From: Folioceros fuciformis
Lineage: Eukaryota
Assembly: GCA_049999805.1 (NCBI GenBank)
Contig: JBNGIO010006232.1
Coordinates: 134,592 to 186,339 of the forward strand
Direction: 5' to 3'
Length of the DNA stretch: 51,748 nt
Below are positions 26,423 to 48,232 of the stretch, piece after piece. Within the stretch, counting starts at the first letter, position 1. The number at the start of each line of letters is the position of its first letter. Under the pieces are notes generated by a model. It saw only the letters and a program-made list of their open reading frames with translations, had not been told where the DNA came from and did not search any database. Position numbers and translations under genes: made by a program.

Positions 26423-26676
26423 GCTGATATGGGCAAGCTAGCTACCCATTGAGCTTCATTTGAGAGCCCGTGCGACGGTTGCTCTTTGCCAAACTGTCCC
26501 TAGTCATCTATAATAAGACTGAAGAATGTGTTTATAAAATCCAATTTTTGACGTTGTAAGGTAAAGAGTGCGTGTCCGATGATTCGCGGCCCATAGTTCG
26601 AGAACGGTTTCACGGCCGCTGTGGGGGTTCGAGTCTCGTCGAGAACATTGTATGACAAGGTGAATCGCAATAATTC

Positions 26677-27141
26677 ACATTTATGCCAGTTTGGTTACCT
26701 CATCTATGGAATACCGACGCGGACATTTATGCCAATTCGGGTTATCTCATCTATGGAATACCGACGCGGACATTTATGCCAGNNNNNNNNNNTGCCAGTT
26801 CGGGTTATCTCATCTATGGAATACCGACGCGGACATTTACGCCAGTTGGGTTATCTCATCTATGGAATACCGACGCGGACATTTACGCCAGTTTGGTTAT
26901 CTCATCTATGGAATATCGATGCGGACATTTATGCCAGTTTGGTTATCTCCTCTATGGAAATCTTGACAATGTGGTTATCTCATCTATGGAAATCTCATCT
27001 ATGGAATACCGTGNNNNNNNNNNTCTCATCTATGGAAATCTCATCTATGGAATACCGTGGACAGGGACCACGGAATACCACGGACAGGGACTACGGAATA
27101 CCACGGACAAGGACTATGAAATACCACGGACAGGGACTACA
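26677..27141. repeat. Compound minisatellite: 46-47 bp units, then 15-bp units, then ~23-bp units; two short N gaps
   Basis: acatttatgccagtt(t/c)ggttatctcatctatggaataccgacgcgg repeats about 6 times, followed by aatctcatctatgga units and then ggaataccacggacagggactac units. The units share the core tatggaatacc/ggaatacc. Confidence 0.9.
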
Positions 27142-27908
27142 TACCAATGTTTTTTTATTGGAATACATATTTTATATGCAAATATATCATGGCATCTAAG
27201 GAATATTCCTCTACTCTAGCTTGCCACAACCCTATATACACTATATAGCGGGACAATCGGGAGCTCCCAATTCTCTTCCTGTCCTCGCTGCGCACGCTAC
27301 TAGTGCACAGTGTTAGTAGCGGGTGAATTTGATGTCCGGGTGCTTGGAAACAAGTTAACACTGATGCGTGGTTCTATAATCCTGAGGGGTTTGAGGACCA
27401 GACCCCCAAGCATGAATTCCACCCCAACTGGCCAGTTCCTCTCGAGCACTTGCAAGGTGATCATTTTGGCATCCGGCACGCTCCAGCTGGATGCAAGAGC
27501 AGGTGCGGCACTAGGTAGCTTGGAAGCCACCCCCGCCAGCTTACACCGGTCGTTGAACCAGAGGACCTGCTTAGACTTCCTGTTTCGAGCCTCCTGAGAT
27601 TGACTGCGATCTTGGAGCAAGCATAGTCCGACGCAAACTTCTCCCACAAGAATTGCTGGTTGATGGAAGGCCCTATACCAACCGAACTCCAGTTGCACGG
27701 GCTGGCTCTACAGCCAAGTTGTTGCACCTGGCAGCTTCATTGTGTGCCAACATCTGCTTCCGTGAAGTCAGCTTGGCAAGAGGCCTTCCTAGCAAGCCTG
27801 TCACCCTCCACACAGTTGTGGTTCTCGCATGAACCTACGGATGTTGTGTCCCCCTACTCGCCCCAGAGCTTGCTACAAAGCTGCACTTGGCCATGACCCA
27901 TCCCGATC

Positions 27909-28593: not shown

Positions 28594-30069
28594 GCACCTC
28601 GTTGGCCGCTGTCTACCCCACCCTTCACTTCCCTTGTTTCTTGCAATGTTGGCATCCACAGCTTCCAACTCTTGCTAGATAGCGTCGCGTTCCTCCCCGC
28701 ACCCGACACAAGAAACCCTCCCCAACCTCTTCGCCAGTTGTTGCCTGCGCATGACATCCAGGNNNNNNNNNNNNNNNNNNNNNNNNNNNNNNNNNNNNNN
28801 NNNNNNNNNNNNNNNNNNNNNNNNNNNNNNNNNNNNNNNNNNNNNNNNNNNNNNNNNNNNNNNNNNNNNNNNNNNNNNNNNNNNNNNNNNNNNNNNNNNN
28901 NNNNNNNNNNNNNNNNNNNNNNNNNNNNNNNNNNNNNNNNNNNNNNNNNNNNNNNNNNNNNNNNNNNNNNNNNNNNNNNNNNNNNNNNNNNNNNNNNNNN
29001 NNNNNNNNNNNNNNNNNNNNNNNNNNNNNNNNNNNNNNNNNNNNNNNNNNNNNNNNNNNNNNNNNNNNNNNNNNNNNNNNNNNNNNNNNNNNNNNNNNNN
29101 NNNNNNNNNNNNNNNNNNNNNNNNNNNNNNNNNNNNNNNNNNNNNNNNNNNNNNNNNNNNNNACCTCTGTATGAACCCCAGGGATCGTAGCATCCTCGCC
29201 ACCCCTACTACCTGTAGCCTCATCGCCACCCCAGCTATCGACATTCTCGCTCCTGATCCTTGAAGATGCAGCCTCCGTTGACCCTTCTGTAGACGCAACC
29301 ACCATTGCCGTTTCTATACGTGTTCTAGCCACGACCCCTATATGCCCGGGTTCAGGGCTCTTCCCTCCCATGCTTTCTGCTACCATTGCCCCTCCATCGA
29401 CTGTAGCGGCCACTGGCCCTCCTTCGGCATCAGCGGCTGCTACCCCTCCTCTAGCAGCAACGGCCTTCAACAGGCTGACCTTCAACGGAGGCTGCATCTT
29501 TGGGGATTAGGAGCGAGACTGTCGGTAGCTGGGGTGGCGATGAGGCTATAGGTAGTAGGGGTGGCGAGGATGCTACGATCCCTGGGGTTCATACAGAGGT
29601 TGAGGTGTTTGCAGCCAATGATGGTAGTGTAGCAACGCTTGCAGTTGTGGCAGTTGTGGTGGACGCACCTGCCGATGGGGAGAGTGGGGCGGGGGGAAGG
29701 GGATTGTGGACGTGCGGACACCGCTGAGGCAGGTGGGGAATATTGGCCACGGTGGCACAGATGCAAATGAGGCAACCCTAAAGATGATGTCCATGATTGC
29801 AGCAGGGAGGTAGGACTGGACGATAGGACTGGACGGAGGGCGGCAAACCACGGAGGCCAATCTATGCGGAGAATGGGGAATTTAGTCGATGGAGGTACCT
29901 AGATGTCATGAGCAGGCAACAACTGGCGAGGAGGTTGGGGAGGGTTTCTTGTGTTGGGTGCGGGGAGGAGCACAAGGTTGAGCAGCAAGAGATGGAAGTT
30001 GTGGACGCCAGCATTGCAAGAAACGGGGAAGTGGAGGATGGGGTAGGCAGCGGCCAACGAGGGGGGTGC
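28594..30069. repeat. Long inverted repeat: arms 28594-29281 (containing a 400-N gap) and 29482-30069, with a 200-nt spacer
   Basis: 29163-29281 is the reverse complement of 29482-29600 (7 mismatches in 119 nt by manual count). 28594-28762 is the more diverged reverse complement of 29898-30069. Confidence 0.9.
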
Positions 30070-38891: not shown

Positions 38892-39835
38892 CTACAAGAA
38901 CGAAGCTGCGATTCTAGCTTCCAGACTGATGTCATCACCGCTATCTTCATCGAAAGTGTGATCAATGCAATGCGGACCCTCCAATTTCGAACATTGCCTT
39001 AGCACTTCTTCCGCAGTCGATATGACAGCGCATTTGGCCTCCACTAAGGAATGGAAGTCCTTGCCGACAATCCTGTTCGAAGCTCCACTTCTTGGCCGCT
39101 TCGAAGCGGCTCTAGCTAGCGACATATCCTGCTTCTTCCGATGGTGCAACAGGTCGATATATCGGTCGAGCTGCACATGATTTACTGTCCGCTTCAACAC
39201 CTCTGGACTACGATTCTCGTGTTGCCCGACATCTTGGTGAGACACCGCTATCCTGCTTCCCTTCCCTTTGCCTGGCTGCTGAACTAGACCTGGCACGTTT
39301 AGTCGGGTGGAGCTCACCGGTCTCAGGGTCTGCTTCTCATTTGCAGCTGCAATGCACTCCAAAGCAGCAAACTCATCGGCTTCGAAGCCTTCCTCTGCTA
39401 TGCGCTGTTGCCGCATCATTTCCCGCACGATTTTCCTAGACCTGCTCAGTGTAGGTTTCCTCTTTCGCTGTCTATTGCCACTCGCTCCATCCTCCGTCTC
39501 AGAATCATACGCTACCAGCTCTTCCGCACCTTTCGCAGGAGATCTACGACGAGATGCTCTTCGCAGCTGCGGAGGCGTGGGGAACGCCGAGTAGTGCTTG
39601 TCGAAACACTCCTTGGCGGTTCTCCCTGGCACCTGCAAGACTCGCCGCGCGCAAACCCTAAGACACTTTAGCTGGAAGCTGCAGCATAACCATGCCCAGG
39701 CAGAGGTGAAGCCTACCAGGATCAGGAAGGCACACTCACCTTTCTCGCAATATCAAGCCAGAAGTTCGCAGACGGCTTCACCTCATAGTATGCACTCTGC
39801 AGTGCTGCCTCCTCCTCTTTGGTCCAGGAATCCAT
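38892..39835 (-). CDS. SANT/Myb-like domain protein; exons 39835-39740 and 39632-38892
   Basis: MDSWTKEEEAALQSAYYEVKPSANFWLDIARK-VPGRTAKECFDKHYSAFPTP is restored by a GT-AG intron. Later SPEVLK...LDRYIDLLH motif and basic NLS-like stretches. Confidence 0.85.
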
Positions 39836-40293
39836 TCCCTGGGCCTAGCAATAGCAGCAGCACCGGCGTTTGTCCGCAGACTTTGTACAATGCTTCCAGA
39901 ACAGCTTGCGATCGTTCTTCCTTGTCATAATCAAGAAACTGGACCACGCCGCATCACACCAGCCTCTCCTCCTCTCCAGCATCCAATCTGCCATTCTTCG
40001 CAATTCTCACAGAGAAGAGCCTGATGGAATTACGAACCTTTGAATCCTACAATGCATTACGGCGCTTCGTCTCCGTGCAACGGTCATACTGGCGAAACAT
40101 TACCGATCTACTTTCGCCGCTCCTTATCCCATTCTCGGTTGTCCCTTCGATGGCAAATCCCGCCCTCGCCAAGCATCTGGTGGACGCTTGTCAGAATAGA
40201 ACCATGATCGGTGTTGGATGCAGTGGTTTTGTGCAGTGGACTCTTTCTTGCATTTTGTTTAAACAGGCTACCAGCACAAACAATGGAGAGGCG

Positions 40294-43200
40294 ATGTGGC
40301 GGATTAAATGGCTGCAGCCAGGCTTCACTGTCGGTGCTGCCTCACGGGATCATCGCTTATTCATATTTGCAGTCGTTCCTGCCCAGACAGTCTGCTGCGG
40401 ATGTTCGAGTGATCGGAAAATTGAGGGGGTTGAGAGGGAGGAGGCGACGGAAGTGGAACGGCTCTGGACGAACTTTTTTTCGGACCCTTTATACTGGTGG
40501 GATAACCGATCTAGCAAGGTGGAATGCCATCTCCTTCCTCCTGATGTGGGATCGGACATCGTTTTCTACCAGTGCTGCTTCTGACGTGGGCTCTTGTCGT
40601 GGGTTTCCAGAGGACTGTGGACTTTCCCGACTTCCGTAACAAGGTCACAAAGGAGGGCCTGTGGGTGGACAACGAACTCAACCCGAGCTGGGTGAAAAGC
40701 AAGCTCGATTCAATGGAACACATACTAAAGGCTGTGTCCTCTACCAAAGGTTTGTCCACGGTTTGACTGGCACAACCAGGTTGTGAAGTTCCAACATGCA
40801 GGCTTTAGTGGAGTAGAAAGATATTGGTTGTGTGCAGAAAAAGGGCCCTCCCCCAAAGATGTGAAGAAGGAGGAGCAGAAAATGTTGTGGGAGGAGTTCT
40901 TCGTGGATCCCTCTCAGTACAAAGATAATAGGCTGTACAAGGTAGTAGTATTCTGTCATTGTGTGCCTATGAATTTGAAGATGTGACACATTTGACTTGG
41001 GCTCCCGGACTTGCGTGTAGAAAAATCCCCAGCAACCCGACTTTAGGCACAAGAGAACAAATGCTGCTCTGTGGATTAATAATTCGCTGAAACCTCCGTG
41101 GGTAGAGTCACTGTTAGCTACGCTGGAATGGGGTGGAGCACACTCAAATGGTGAGTCCGGCTGCAGTCTGTCCACTTCTGGCTCAGCTTTAGGACACCAA
41201 ACGTAGAATATGTCTGATTGTTATCTATTGATTGCTTATCTTATTAAAATTGAAAGGTAGCAGTTCGTGAATCGCGCAGGGAAGTTGATGTGTCTGATTG
41301 CACCCAGAAGCTGAAGAGTTTGTGTGAAGAAGGATAAATCGAGGAGGCCCTTGACGTGCTCATGGAGGAGCAGGGGTTGGTGATCTACACTGAGATCTAC
41401 CGCTACCTGCTGCAGGGATGGATTGAAAAACAATCCCTGGCAGAGGCTAAGGAAGTCCATGCTCGCATTATGAGGAACGGATTTGAATCAAACAGCTATT
41501 TGGGGGAGTCCCTTGTGAACATGTTTGTCAAATGCGGGAGCCTTTCTGAGGCCCTCAACGTTTTCAACAGGTTGCCACGGCGCACAACATTCTCATGGAC
41601 TGCAATTATCTCTGGATACACCAAGGATGTACAACAATTGGAAGCTGTTGAAGTGTACAAGAGAATGAGGAAGGAAGGTATCATCCCCAACAAGTACACG
41701 TTTGTTAGTGTGCTCAAATCTTGTGGCATCTTACAGGACTTGGACGAGGGAAAGAGTGTACATGCAGAAGTAGTAGCCTGTGGATGCGAATCAGATTTGT
41801 ACGTTGGGACTACTCTTGTGGACGTGTATTCAAGATGTGGAATTATGGATCGAGCCCGGCAGGTCTTCGACACGCTGTGTCAGCGTGACATTGTGTTATG
41901 GAATGGGATGATTGCAGGATATGTCCAGCAAGGGCAATACACAGAAGCTTTGCAGTTGTACAAACAAATGCACGAGGAAGGTGTCAGCCCACATGATAGA
42001 ATCTTTGTCAGTGTCCTAAAAGCTTGTGGCAGCTTAGCAAGCACTGAGGAAGGTACACTGGTCGATGGTCAGTTGCTGAAGATGTACGCCCTGCTGATGG
42101 GTAAGGCCGATTCTCATGCATGGCGCTGAGTTAGACGATTACGTCGCCACCACTCTAATTAGTATGTATGGAGTGTGTGGGCGTATGGAGGATGCTCAGT
42201 CTGTTTTTGAAATTCAGACCCACTGCACTGTGGAGTCATGGAACGCACTGATAGAGGGGTATGTGGAACAAAAACAAAGTGCACGTGGTCTTGAACTCTA
42301 TGATCGTATGAAGGACGCAGGTTTCCAGCCAGATAATTAGACATTTGTAAGCATACTTAAAGCTTGTGTTAGCATGGCCGCCATGGAGCAAGAGTTGATC
42401 ATCTGTTGGCAAGCAGTGAAAGTAGTATCACTGCAGAGAGGTAAAGCAGTGCATGCCGAGCTTGTTCGAATGGGTCGTGACTTGAACACTTTTGTTGGTA
42501 ACACTCTTATCCACATGTTTGCCAGATTTGAGGGCCTCGTAGATGCGCGACGTGTGTTTGATACATTGTCCCCACGCAGTATTGTATCCTGGAACGCCAT
42601 AATCGCAGGGTATACTGACCTAGGACAAGGTGAGGAAGCCATCCAACTATATGGCCAAATGCAGAAAAAGGGCGTAGTACCAAATGAGTCCACATTTCTC
42701 TGTATATTGAAAGCCTCCAGCAGTGTTGGGGCTTTAAGCATAACCATCGAGGTCCATCGTGACCTAGTTCAAAGTGGACTCCCGTTGACATCACTTCTGG
42801 CCAGCAGTCTCATTCCAGCATATGGCAAATGTGGGAGCATGACGCAAGCTCAGCAGCTCTTCGACACATTGACTGAACCTGACGTTATATCATGGAACTC
42901 GTTAATCGCTGGCTATGCCCGGCAAGCAGAAGTTCACACGTGCTTGCCATGTTTCGAGGAGATGCTTCATGCAGGGGTACAGCCAGATGAAGTGATCTTC
43001 AACCATGTTCTGACATCTTGTTGTCATGCAGGCATGGTGCATGAGGGCCTGCAGTATTTTAAGGCCATGAAGTATCGCAGAATTGCACCTGGGCTACGAC
43101 ACTATGCAAATCTGGTCGACCTCCTTGGCCGTGCAGGACTCTTCAAACAGGCTGAGGACGTTATCGCAGGCATGCCCATGGGACCTGATCTAGCAATGTG

Positions 43201-43539
43201 GTTGTCTATACTTGCCTCGTGCCGACACTACAGCAACCTAGACTGTGGACGCCGTGCTTTCGAGTCTGCGGTGAAATGGATTCGAGGGAGGCAGCACCTT
43301 ATGTTCTAATGTCCACATTGTACAGACAGGCTAGTATGGCGGAGGAAGCCGACAAGCTGAGAACAGTTGTAGGAGCGTGGAAGAAGCCTGGAAAGAGCTG
43401 GATTGGGCAGGGAGACGAAGTCCATGAATTTTCAATTGGAGATAGGAGCCATGTCCAGAGCCAGCACATCTTCTGGACCATGTCTGCGCTATCTGCGCGG
43501 ATGAAAACACTGCTAGATTTTGAAAGAGGGTGCCAGTGA
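40294..43539 (+). pseudogene. Two OSB-type PDF motifs fused to a PLS-class PPR array with E/E+ end; apparently disrupted
   Basis: Predicted exons are 40294-40518, 40611-40749, 40838-40941, 41021-41150 and 41264-43539. The PDF motifs are LWTNFFSDPLYWWDNRSSK-RTVDFPDFRNKVTKEGLWVD and LWEEFFVDPSQYKDNRLYK-KNPQQPDFRHKRTNAALWIN. P/L/S repeats follow, then HYANLVDLLGRAG and KKPGKSWI...GDRSH. Lesions: TAA 41335-41337, frameshift ~42110, TAG 42338-42340, frameshift ~43272. Confidence 0.85.
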
Positions 43540-44492: not shown

Positions 44493-45989
44493 TCATACTT
44501 TGTCATGGGCTTTAGTGCCAGGCTCCTGTTCATTGTAAGAACCTGAATCAGAGTCAGAGTCAGAGTCAGAGTCAGAGTCGGAGTCAGCTTCGGAGTCTGT
44601 GTCCGAGCCCCAGTCCGAGACGGAGTCGGAGTCTGAAAAGGCCGACAAATCTGATTCGTCCGAAAAGTCTGCAAGCTTCGCCTGCAAAAGTGCTTGAGAC
44701 GACTTGCTAGGATCCTGCATTTCCACAGACGAGACATTATCTGCCACTTCTAGTGGTGGAGCACTGGCTGCCTCAAGGGCCATTTGTATTTGAACTTTCT
44801 TCAGCTCAATTTCCAGCTTTCCTACGTACTCCCTCAACGCTTGAAGTGACTGCGCATGCTGTGATCTAAGTAAGGCCTGCAGAAATTGCATGTATTAGTG
44901 GAATTCGTCCAGTGACCTATGATAACCCACAAGACTAATGACGAGGAATGCATCAAGGCAAGACCGGGTAGGAAAATGCATGCACCTTTCGCTTATCCAG
45001 CATATTATCAGGAATCAACTTCTTCGGCTGCTTGTAGTTCCTCCCTCGGTACATGATTATGGTAGTTCCCTGATGAATGTCGATGACTTTCCCTCCCGAA
45101 AGCTTCTCCAGCTCCGTTGCAATGGCCCTAACCTCACCAGCTTGTTGGTTCTGGCAGTCAATGCGCACAGTTTCATGCTTCTTCCAATGCAAATGCATGT
45201 TCTGTATTGTTCCACCGTACACCCCACGTCGTCCTACAGGAACGTAGTTCCTGTTCTTGTAACCGATTTTCTTCAAGGCATGCAGTTGCTCTGGTGTCAG
45301 CACTTCCGGGTCATCTGGTTTAGCTGGCGGCTCGGGGACAGCATACTTCTTGATGGCCTGCTCATGACGCTCTATCTTCTTCTGAGCCTGCATCCAGCAA
45401 CAACCACAAAACTTCACCACAGCTCTACTGTCCGATGACAACCAATGTAATGAAGGAACATCTTTCGACAGCAACAACTGAACATCAATGCACAATTCTA
45501 TACCTTATGCATTCTGTACTTTAACAGCTCATCAGGGGACATGCTTAGTTTCCTCATCTTCCTCTCCCGCCGCAGCATCTTCAGTCGCATCGTGTCCTCC
45601 TTGGAAACCTTCCTCCTGTGACTTTTCTTCTTTTTCTTCTTCTTCTGACTCTTGAACCGCACACTTCCCCCCAGAAACGGATTCCTTGATGAGACCCACG
45701 ATACAGGTACCAGTCCACCCCCTTGTCCTCCTACAGTCACTGAAGTAAACATCCTCCATTGCCCCAGAAGCCCGTGAATCGCAGGGACCTGGAGCTCAGC
45801 GGCATTCAACCCATCTATCGACTCTTGCCCCTTTGACCCCTGGCCCAAACCTCCAGGGGCAACATCCACTCCAATGTCAGTCAAGTACAATGAGCTCAGC
45901 CAAGGAGGAACTTCCGGGACAGGCATCCGAGGACGCAGCCCGTGCGATGTACACAGTTCAATGCATTTACGCCTGATGCACCACGACAT
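44493..45989 (-). CDS. Single-CRM-domain (CRS1/YhbY) RNA-binding protein, organellar splicing-factor type; 3 exons
   Basis: DPEVLTPEQLHALKKIGYKNRNYVPVGRRGVYGGTIQNMHLHWKKHETV...IIMYRGRNY, a Lys/Arg-rich linker and a Ser-Asp acidic tail. The 3' end could include a further exon. Confidence 0.9.
44546..44635. repeat. Hexamer microsatellite (gagtca/gagtcg)n encoding a Ser-Asp repeat in the CRM gene
   Basis: Directly visible; translates on the - strand as SDSDSDSDSDS. Confidence 0.9.
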
Positions 45990-46385: not shown

Positions 46386-48232
46386 ATGAGGAGGACAGAA
46401 ACCGCAGGCCTGAAGAAAGCTTTTGCTTCAGCAATCAGCCAAGCTGGTGCTTATATAAGATTAGGAACGATCTCGAGGGGGTCATGCACCTTTCCAGAGG
46501 ATGTTCAAGCAGGGGAATCGGATAGGGTTCGGAGGTTTGCGGCTCGGAGGGGTAAGCAAAGGATTGGAGTTTCTCAAGGGAACCAGGAGCAGTGCTTTAA
46601 GGTGCAGGGAGACAGACGGCCTGTCTGGTGGATGGAAGATCATGTCCCTGCCGTCGAACAGCAAGGTCGGGGAGGACGGAGTGCAGATCGCTCGGGACTC
46701 AAAGTGAGGTAAAATGTCTTCGACTGGAGTAATGCCCCTAGTGTGAAGCAAAGATAGCTGATCGCCTGGAAATCACGTCAGATCGTCCTGAATTTTGCAG
46801 AGGCGATATCAGCTCCTCTGATGGGTTGGAGAGCCTCCTGAAGGATGGTCGGCTGCATGAAGCTCTGGCAGAATGTATAAAGAACCGCAATCTTGCCGTC
46901 GGGAGACGAGTGTATGCGCTCGCCGTCAATCAAGGTCTGGACAAGGATGTGTCAATTGGAAAGAGGTTCATTCGCCTTTTTGCTTCTGCTCGTTGTTTGT
47001 CTGAAGCGCGTCAAGCTTTCCGCAATATCGTTGCCCCAAACGCATCCGCTTGGCGGCTGATCATCTCAGCAGAGGCCAGCCTGGGTACGGGTGAAGAGGC
47101 TGTCAAATTGTATCAGGAGATGGTGTGGTCTGGAGTGCGACCCAACGAGTATATCTTTGTGCCGGCTCTGAAAGCGTGTGCTAGCCTAGGATTGTTACGA
47201 GAGGGGAGGGAGATCCACTCCCAAGTGATCAAGTCTGGGTGTAAGATAGATGTATATCTTGGGACCGCACTTGTCGACATGTATGCCAAGTGTGGCAGCC
47301 TGGCTGATGGACGCAAAGTTTTTAACTGCCTTACAGAAAAAAATGTAGCTCTTTGGACCTCCATCATTGCCGGATATGCACAAGGTGGCAGAGGTCAGGA
47401 AGCTCTTCAGCTGTTTGAGCAAATGCAAATGCAAGGCGTGCAGCCGAATCGAGTCACTTTTGTTTGTGTGTTGAAAGCATGCACCTCGGTTGCAGCGTTA
47501 GAGCAGGGACGAGAGATTCATGCACAAGTTTTGCAGAATGGATTCGAATGCGACATGGTATTAGGGAATGCTCTAGTGGACATGTACTGCAAGTGTGGGA
47601 GCCTTGATGAGGCGCTGAGACTATTTGATCAGCTGCCAGGAAAAGATGTAGTGTCTTGGACATCGTTGATCGGAGGCTATGCTCACAACGGTGATGCAGA
47701 GGGAGCGTTGAATCTCTTTGAGCAGATGCAGGCGAAGGGTCTAGAGCCTAACGGTATCACATTTGTGAACGTTCTCACTGCCTGCAACCATGCTGGAAGG
47801 GTCGAAGAAGGTTCTCGCTTGTTTCAAGGTATGTCTAAGAGCTTTGGCATCAGCCCACAGGCTGAGCATTATGCCTCCATGGTGGACCTGCTTGGTCGTG
47901 CGGGCCATCTGAACGAGGTGGAAGAATTCATTAACGCAATGCCCTTGCAAGCTGATGTGAAGGTTTGGACGTCTGTGCTTGGGGCATGTCACACACACGG
48001 AAATCTGGAGCTCGGCAAACGAGCTTTCCGGGAGGTCATTGAACGAGAACCAGGCTGTGCCTCAGCTTATGTTCTAATGTCAAATATTTATGAAGCTGCT
48101 GACAGGATGGATGACGCCATAGCCATGCGACGCATGATGAGGACTGCAGGGGTAACGAAGCTACCAGGGAGGAGCTGGATACAGGTTCAGAACGAGGTTT
48201 TCAGTTTCCAAGCCCTGTGTGTACCTCCTTAA
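46386..48232 (+). CDS. PLS-class PPR protein with E domains and truncated E+ (no DYW); exons 46386-46708 and 46801-48232
   Basis: Regular P-L-S triplets (ALVDMYAKCGSL, WTSIIAGYAQ, TFVCVLKAC), then HYASMVDLLGRAG, AYVLMSNIY and KLPGRSWIQV. A phase-2 GT-AG intron (46709-46800) joins an upstream exon in frame. Confidence 0.92.

Follow-up and report, generated by a model that had tools for sequence, protein, structure and literature searches.

A transcribed, probably decayed gene of the PDF-PPR type in Folioceros fuciformis and its relatives in seed-free plants

RNA editing factors of the pentatricopeptide repeat (PPR) class are usually described as a targeting signal followed by a PPR tract and by E/DYW domains, and their helpers, among them the MORF/RIP proteins of seed plants, are known mainly from that group. 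The locus described here lies on the + strand, at positions 40294–43539 of a 51,748-nucleotide (nt) stretch of Folioceros fuciformis DNA (assembly GCA_049999805.1, contig JBNGIO010006232.1, forward-strand positions 134,592 to 186,339). This whole stretch is called the window, and all coordinates refer to it. At this locus two copies of the PDF motif, the module of the OSB proteins, stand in front of the remains of a PLS-type PPR array. The reading preferred here, with a probability of about 0.8, is that of a transcribed and spliced pseudogene from a PDF-PPR family, whose members carry one to three N-terminal OSB-type PDF motifs, a linker, a PLS-PPR array, an E motif and, in many of them, a DYW domain.

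The OSB family has the same PDF motif, which spans about 55 residues with invariant W, P, W, D, PDF, W and W positions. OSBs are organellar proteins of plants encoded by nuclear genes, with the motif in one to several copies, as set out in parts of PMC6963530 and PMC4166229; in these parts of the literature they have been studied for mitochondrial DNA recombination and not for RNA editing. They have a central SSB-like/OB domain with the PDF motifs behind it, whereas the motifs in the window are N-terminal, in front of the PPR repeats, and come without any SSB/OB match. The likeness to the PLS-class PPR-E/E+/DYW editing factors lies in the PPR matches and in the best homologues, which are PLS-type proteins with an E motif and often a DYW domain. 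Unlike these factors, the copy in the window is broken and lacks DYW, and the described factors have not been reported with a PDF module. A third likeness is to PDF+PPR proteins of seed-free plants, built from a presequence, one to three PDF motifs, a linker, a PLS-PPR array and an E motif with or without DYW. Those proteins have open frames, whereas the window locus is broken, and, as the identity between its PPR part and a PDF+PPR protein nowhere exceeds about 50%, the locus is regarded as a distinct, decayed member.

Anatomy, splicing and decay of the locus

The PDF motifs were identified with a hidden Markov model (HMM) of 62 positions, built on 41 PDF segments, which were taken out of 26 proteins that carry the name OSB or single-stranded DNA-binding protein (SSB). 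The OSB sequences had been collected through a search with residues 1–195 of P0004, a lycophyte PDF-PPR homologue. Of the 1766 candidates for this query, 399 shorter proteins matched at E ≤ 0.001, including named OSB1, OSB2 and OSB3 proteins (e.g., Amborella OSB3, E 2.7e-67), and PF00436 is recorded for many of the OSB matches. The OSB/SSB-only HMM recognizes two segments of the spliced product, PDF motif 1 at amino acids (aa) 51–111 with 68.5 bits (HMM positions 3–61 of 62) and PDF motif 2 at aa 131–191 with 63.2 bits (positions 2–60 of 62), which bears out the two OSB-type motifs named in a preliminary description made from the sequence. Both alignments are gap-free across the removed intron sites; the single exon pieces score 37.7, 37.0, 26.4 and 19.8 bits, and in a six-frame scan of the window the next best piece reached 5.8 bits (E 1.2). 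PPR repeats as such are not picked up by the HMM, which matches just 10 of the best 120 PPR homologues. None of the four PDF-exon translations has a Pfam family at E ≤ 1, SSB/OB included, in line with the earlier view that no OB/SSB fold is visible, and with the first PDF starting at aa 51 of the model there is no room for an SSB-like/OB domain in front. Exon 4 by itself, used as the query of a word-based search, gave no match (two candidates, none scored).

The gene model was compared with three sequencing runs. X1 is a DNA run that is colinear with the window, X3 carries the same species label and comes from a different study, and X5 belongs to a second, related species, about 92–94% identical. 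The records do not say that X3 and X5 are RNA; they are taken as such because their GT..AG skips are absent from X1. The features of the locus are as follows.

40150–40293, + strand: possible N-terminal extension or 5' leader; the frame is open from 39931 and the X3 contig begins at 40131
40294–40518, + strand: exon 1, with a presequence-like N-terminus, then the first half of PDF motif 1 (40444–40518); ends after DNRSSK
40519–40610, + strand: intron 1, 92 nt, phase 0, GT..AG, interrupting PDF motif 1
40611–40749, + strand: exon 2, with the second half of PDF motif 1 (40611–40718), then spacer
40750–40837, + strand: intron 2, 88 nt, phase 1; stop at 40764–40766 if retained
40838–40941, + strand: exon 3, with spacer, then the first half of PDF motif 2 (40864–40941); ends after DNRLYK
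40942–41020, + strand: intron 3, 79 nt, phase 0, GT..AG; its position in motif 2 matches that of intron 1 in motif 1
41021–41150, + strand: exon 4, with the second half of PDF motif 2 (41021–41125), then the start of the linker
41151–41279, + strand: intron 4 in its observed form, 129 nt, GT..AG; the form first proposed ended at 41263
41312–41314, + strand: TGA closing the PDF frame in the observed mRNA; 210-aa product with two PDF motifs and without PPR
41281–43539, + strand: what is left of a PLS-type PPR array, with weak candidate E/E+ motifs and without DYW; terminal TGA at 43537–43539
41335–41337, + strand: lesion 1, TAA within the first PPR motif
about 42100–42110, + strand: lesion 2, frame shift; the related species is longer by 11 nt behind 42108
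42338–42340, + strand: lesion 3, TAG; TGG in the related species
about 43276–43291, + strand: lesion 4, frame shift

The four PDF exons have GT..AG borders and give an open frame once joined. The ATG at 40294 that was chosen at first is a putative start codon, as it is preceded by two further in-frame ATGs, at 40150 and 40204, both of them within the transcript. Exon borders and HMM alignment agree in placing a phase-0 intron right after DNRxxK in both PDF copies, as the preliminary description had noticed, and exons 3 and 4 (104 + 130 nt) constitute a 234-nt cassette between phase-1 introns, which is consistent with the duplication of a module that was also proposed there. The two copies are old, because their sequences diverge widely; motif 2 has YK in place of WW before DNR, in exon 3.

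Intron 1 is removed in X3 and X5 (joint 40516>40609, cut +2) and not in X1, and intron 3 is likewise removed in X3 and X5 (joint 40939>41019, cut +2). Intron 2 is spliced out in X5 (record 24) and kept in X3, where record 10 is continuous over 40609–40939. For intron 4, both X3 and X5 have the joint 41149>41279 (cut +1), with the donor at 41150 and a GT..AG skip of 129 nt. Thus, of the four introns first proposed, the spliced contigs confirm introns 1 to 3 and the donor of intron 4, and replace its acceptor: the expected junction 41150^41264 is seen in neither of these transcript-like contigs, both of which carry 41150^41280. Record 10 of X3, with 2308 nt and no mismatch, begins at 40131, crosses the PDF exons and continues to 42738, and so does not end before 41264; as it spans both parts, and further X3 contigs reach 44200, the PDF and PPR parts lie on one transcript. 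The use of the acceptor 41280 puts the PPR array out of frame, so that the PDF open reading frame (ORF) ends at 41312–41314 after 210 aa, and when intron 2 is retained the frame closes already at 40764–40766, after 126 aa. The acceptor 41264 would give an in-frame join, yet the TAA at 41335–41337 would end that product at 223 aa, inside the first PPR motif. The idea that the PDF motifs share a reading frame with the PPR array does not hold for the observed splice form, and its alternative stops almost at once.

That the two frames are left unjoined by the observed splice, the PDF frame stopping 11 codons into exon 5, could also be expected if a small PDF gene and a never-fused PPR pseudogene were unrelated neighbours, the in-frame acceptor at 41264 being then a one-in-three coincidence. 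This is very improbable. The single X3 record crosses from one part into the other, and the order of PDF, linker and first PPR motif, of the LCxEGxLxEA type, is that of intact fusions, as is the length of the linker between the last PDF and the first PPR motif (27 aa in the window, in the frame first proposed, and 27 aa in P0004). Moreover, the similarity that tblastn finds between the PPR frame and P0242 starts at 41275, upstream of the acceptor in use, and a tree of 299 PDF segments places the window's motifs closest to the PDFs of PPR proteins. On this tree the labels PPR-linked and other require 17 changes, where 200 shuffles needed 67 on average and never fewer than 60; no single origin is concluded from this, because the labels largely track taxonomy (seed-free versus seed plants) and the alignment has about 60 columns.

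Downstream of the PDF exons, the Pfam families PPR, PPR_1, PPR_2 and PPR_3 match, and for PPR_2 the three ORF pieces score 101.3, 46.1 and 121.6 bits. The PLS-PPR-E/E+ array of the preliminary description is therefore strong in its repeats and weak at its end, where the last ORF piece gives 20.7 bits for E_motif (cut-off 27.3) and 12.9 bits for Eplus (cut-off 24), both below the Pfam cut-offs. In this part, 43291–43506 aligns by tblastn to residues 1021–1095 of the DYW-type protein P0049 with 42.7% identity, and no match to a DYW remnant was found in the expected place at E ≤ 10 when the C-terminal 150 residues from each of four DYW-type homologues served as queries. The alignment to intact homologues runs in frame 1 as far as about 42105, changes to frame 2 until about 43276 and then returns to frame 1, and an open frame able to give a PPR protein is absent (TAA at 41335, shift at about 42105, TAG at 42338, shift at about 43280). 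With four disabling lesions and an out-of-frame splice, the PDF-PPR protein that had been implied for this locus is not encoded by it. Two nonsense codons and two frame shifts have disabled the PPR part, and the acceptor 41280 also uncouples the PDF from the PPR frame; the largest possible product would be the 210-aa peptide with two PDFs, or that of 126 aa with intron 2 retained.

It could be argued that the gene is intact and that its stops and frame shifts stem from errors of sequencing or assembly, for which the general error rate of assemblies alone would speak, together with the three runs of N that the window (50% G+C) contains elsewhere, all of them distant from the PDF-PPR locus. This explanation is extremely improbable. 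The X3 contigs, from a second run of the same species in another study, reproduce 41279–43330 with no differing letter and no gap, so that the lesions are considered genuine, and two of them are base substitutions that create stop codons.

A more serious alternative is that the locus was remodelled into a working PDF-only gene, in which the 210-aa presequence and two PDFs are functional and the PPR remnant is 3' untranslated sequence. No lesion interrupts the PDF ORF, both species splice introns 1, 3 and 4 and one of them also intron 2, the stop at 41312–41314 falls in the last exon, and short proteins with little besides PDFs exist, e.g., P0165 of Ceratopteris (two PDFs) and P0348 (two PDFs, 228 aa). 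Even so, it is judged unlikely. PDF motif 2 has Y and K where 67/67 and at least 90% of the aligned PDFs, respectively, have W, the same-species contig keeps intron 2 and hence runs into a stop after 126 aa, and many short database entries are contig-end fragments or partial models. Nor is a lesion-free tract of 0.6 kb in the PDF exons significant, as about one lesion would be expected there, by estimate, if the PPR part with its 4 lesions over about 2.2 kb sets the rate.

Several observations weigh against the interpretation as a pseudogene. The PDF exons are free of lesions over 199 codons and still spliced in two species, which could mean that a PDF-only function has been kept. The related species has G at 42339 (TGG) and 11 extra nt behind 42108 that remove the corresponding frame shift, and is thus without two of the lesions (42338 and about 42105). 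It shares the out-of-frame acceptor though it lacks these two lesions, with no compensating indel in the aligned pieces. Among the 40 listed of the 156 differences between both species, 16 codons are synonymous and 19 nonsynonymous, and 20 of these 40 fall in third codon positions. Such figures are a weak sign, which hints that the PPR part may have been constrained during some of the period after the two species separated, or may be so still in the related species. Finally, behind the contig evidence there may be a minor in-frame isoform spliced through 41264.

PDF-PPR proteins of seed-free plants

The combination of PDF and PPR is no accident of this locus, because intact PDF+PPR proteins exist. 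With the PPR piece 41341–42126 as query, 369 longer proteins were found at E ≤ 1e-10, the best 120 of which are 32–52% identical to it; most of the named proteins among these 120 belong to the lycophyte Diphasiastrum or to the fern genera Adiantum and Ceratopteris, and 10 of the 120 carry an N-terminal PDF. Conversely, 44 of the best 120 matches of the PDF search have Pfam PPR families, all 44 with a PDF match of 55–78 bits. When P0187 (PDF and two PPR motifs) was compared exhaustively by phmmer with 1.84 billion cluster representatives, there were 3843 matches at E ≤ 0.001, 1260 at E ≤ 1e-10 and 112 at E ≤ 1e-30, counts that mix PDF and PPR matches. The PDF is present in 48 of the 125 newly found representatives among the matches listed, and of these 48 PPR_2 occurs in 26, the E motif in 8 and DYW in 3.

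Taken together, 94 proteins combine PDF and PPR, with one, two and three PDFs in 81, 11 and 2 proteins, and all PDFs lie within the first 300 residues in 93 of them, the exception being a 1917-aa Selaginella model. At least 24 cluster representatives at 50% identity have both modules, and at least two dozen loci occur in one lycophyte. Some members are complete in the sense anticipated by the preliminary description, which had asked for intact homologues: in P0188 of Diphasiastrum, a PDF is combined with PPR repeats, an E motif and a complete DYW domain. Both P0242 (three PDFs and PPR) and P0219 (PDF, PPR, E and DYW) are single uninterrupted ORFs, so that the fusion does not depend on gene-model software. 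When 20 representatives were looked up, 19 proved to be PDF+PPR proteins, of which the 18 named ones all belong to Diphasiastrum, Selaginella, Adiantum, Ceratopteris, Sphagnum or Riccia, and the remaining one was a protein of Kingdonia with 13 PDFs and without PPR. Calypogeia and Riccia fluitans also appear among the PPR- and PDF-search matches, and no seed-plant PDF+PPR protein was among the proteins seen, no search aimed at its absence having been made. Examples of PDF+PPR proteins are XP_024532480.1, XP_024517303.1 and XP_024539813.1 of Selaginella moellendorffii, KAJ7570437.1 of Diphasiastrum complanatum, KAH8950713.1 of Sphagnum fallax, KAI5076972.1 of Adiantum capillus-veneris, KAH7415344.1 of Ceratopteris richardii and KAL3675360.1 of Riccia sorocarpa. 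As judged from protein sequences, the PDF-PPR architecture is genuine and common in lycophytes, ferns, Sphagnum (peat mosses) and liverworts.

Seven proteins (P0004, P0098, P0132, P0245, P0271, P0322 and P0352) begin in the middle of a PDF, from HMM position 27–29 onward, that is, at the position of the window's phase-0 intron. Their sequences suggest that the intron position in the PDF is conserved, and that many gene models or ORF calls omit the upstream exon with the first half-motif, PDF+PPR genes being in this way under-counted. At the other extreme are proteins that consist of little else than tandem PDFs, namely P0243, P0251, P0256, P0260 and P0274 with 13, 11, 9, 9 and 9 copies, which may be real genes or model artefacts; a local check of P0243, from the angiosperm Kingdonia uniflora, gave no PPR match.

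The preliminary description had allowed for the architecture being already catalogued, and public protein sets of seed-free plants do hold PDF-PPR proteins, under generic PPR or 'hypothetical' names. A full-text literature search in which subscription journals were mostly outside, so that an earlier mention is possible, never linked PDF or OSB motifs with PPR proteins. In a 2026 study of the OSB family, a term search found 'pentatricopeptide' absent from the text available, and the supplementary OSB list of PMC13393729 may include such proteins; similarly, a 2026 survey of domain fusions in editing factors contains neither 'OSB' nor 'PDF' in its main text, and the fusion tables of PMC13386178 may list them. 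One review gives OSB as not detected in Selaginella (PMC4166229), contrary to which Selaginella PPR proteins in RefSeq carry the PDF. The motif has no Pfam model and is therefore invisible to domain-based surveys, which may explain its absence from the literature searched. The PDF-PPR architecture is thus apparently undescribed and widespread in seed-free land plants. Its interest is that a motif known only as the single-stranded DNA (ssDNA)-binding unit of OSBs turns up on many PPR proteins of the editing type, which bears on the history of the PDF motif and provides a concrete and cheap hypothesis for heterologous editing assays. The window locus, being a pseudogene, is by itself ordinary.

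Predicted structure and possible role of the PDF motif

AlphaFold2 models computed with alignments reached a mean predicted local distance difference test score (pLDDT) of 83.9 and a predicted template modelling score (pTM) of 0.64 for P0187, and a mean pLDDT of 85.1, with more than 90 over each PDF, for the two-PDF protein P0156. In these models, the PDF unit is predicted as a helix, three short strands and a helix. A phmmer search with OSB3 (P0122) against PDB sequences gave no match at E ≤ 1, Foldseek with the two-PDF model against solved structures had a best E of 2.7, and VIA-align over 48,161 chains had a best Z of 4.0, with none of 5 or more. For the PDF+PPR model, Foldseek returned PPR proteins alone (best E 6.5e-3). 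The structure searches neither assign nor exclude a fold for the PDF, and no fold assignment follows from them.

When a PPR tract binds RNA, its N-terminal repeats face the 5' end, so that an N-terminal PDF would sit upstream of the recognized RNA element. The PPR-linked copies of the motif retain its invariant aromatic and PDF residues in the alignment. By analogy with OSBs, the PDF of intact members would add a sequence-unspecific binding of single-stranded nucleic acid at the 5' side of the bound RNA, and could in this manner steady the factor on its RNA, or keep it at the ssDNA of the transcribed nucleoid. The preliminary description had likewise considered a tethering to nucleoid ssDNA or R-loops, or an added unspecific affinity for nucleic acids, and the literature searched contained no test of either idea. 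In parts of the OSB literature, the PDF is described as the ssDNA-binding element of AtOSB1 (PMC6963530), and OSB1/2 as preferring ssDNA to double-stranded DNA or RNA (PMC4166229). It weighs against the proposed role that it would be drawn from the analogy with OSBs only, and that OSB1/2 favour ssDNA over RNA. The broader proposal, that a sizeable subset of the editing factors of seed-free plants uses the PDF as an N-terminal accessory that grips RNA, or a displaced DNA strand, upstream of the PPR footprint, is accordingly put forward as a doubtful, though conceivable, one. If it were true, the accessory would raise affinity or couple editing to transcription, and the PDF would be a helper of PLS-PPR proteins that is specific to this lineage and missing from those seed-plant proteins that were seen, with the window locus as the fossil of such a gene.

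Other genes in the window

A second PLS-type PPR gene is located 3.2 kb downstream. It consists of one open stretch of 495 aa with strong PPR matches and a good E motif (50.3 bits), has no upstream PDF motif and ends within the E+ region. An ORF on the opposite strand, between both PPR genes, encodes a CRS1/YhbY (CRM) domain, which is also typical of organellar RNA-processing factors. Upstream of the locus, the X3 contig has a 107-nt skip with CT..AC ends, equivalent to GT..AG on the minus strand, so that the minus-strand neighbour is taken to be transcribed and spliced. The positions of these and the remaining features are listed below.

46745–48229, + strand: second PLS-type PPR gene
44956–45504, − strand: ORF with the CRS1/YhbY (CRM) domain, 69.9 bits
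38895–39752, − strand: upstream ORF, 286 aa, no Pfam family; the skip in the X3 contig lies at 39629–39737
49788–50348 and 50871–51452, + strand: two similar tandem cysteine-containing ORFs of about 190 aa, no Pfam family at E ≤ 0.001
26597–27219: repetitive tract with a reiterated peptide in several frames; runs of N at 26783–26792, 27014–27023 and 28763–29162 interrupt this region

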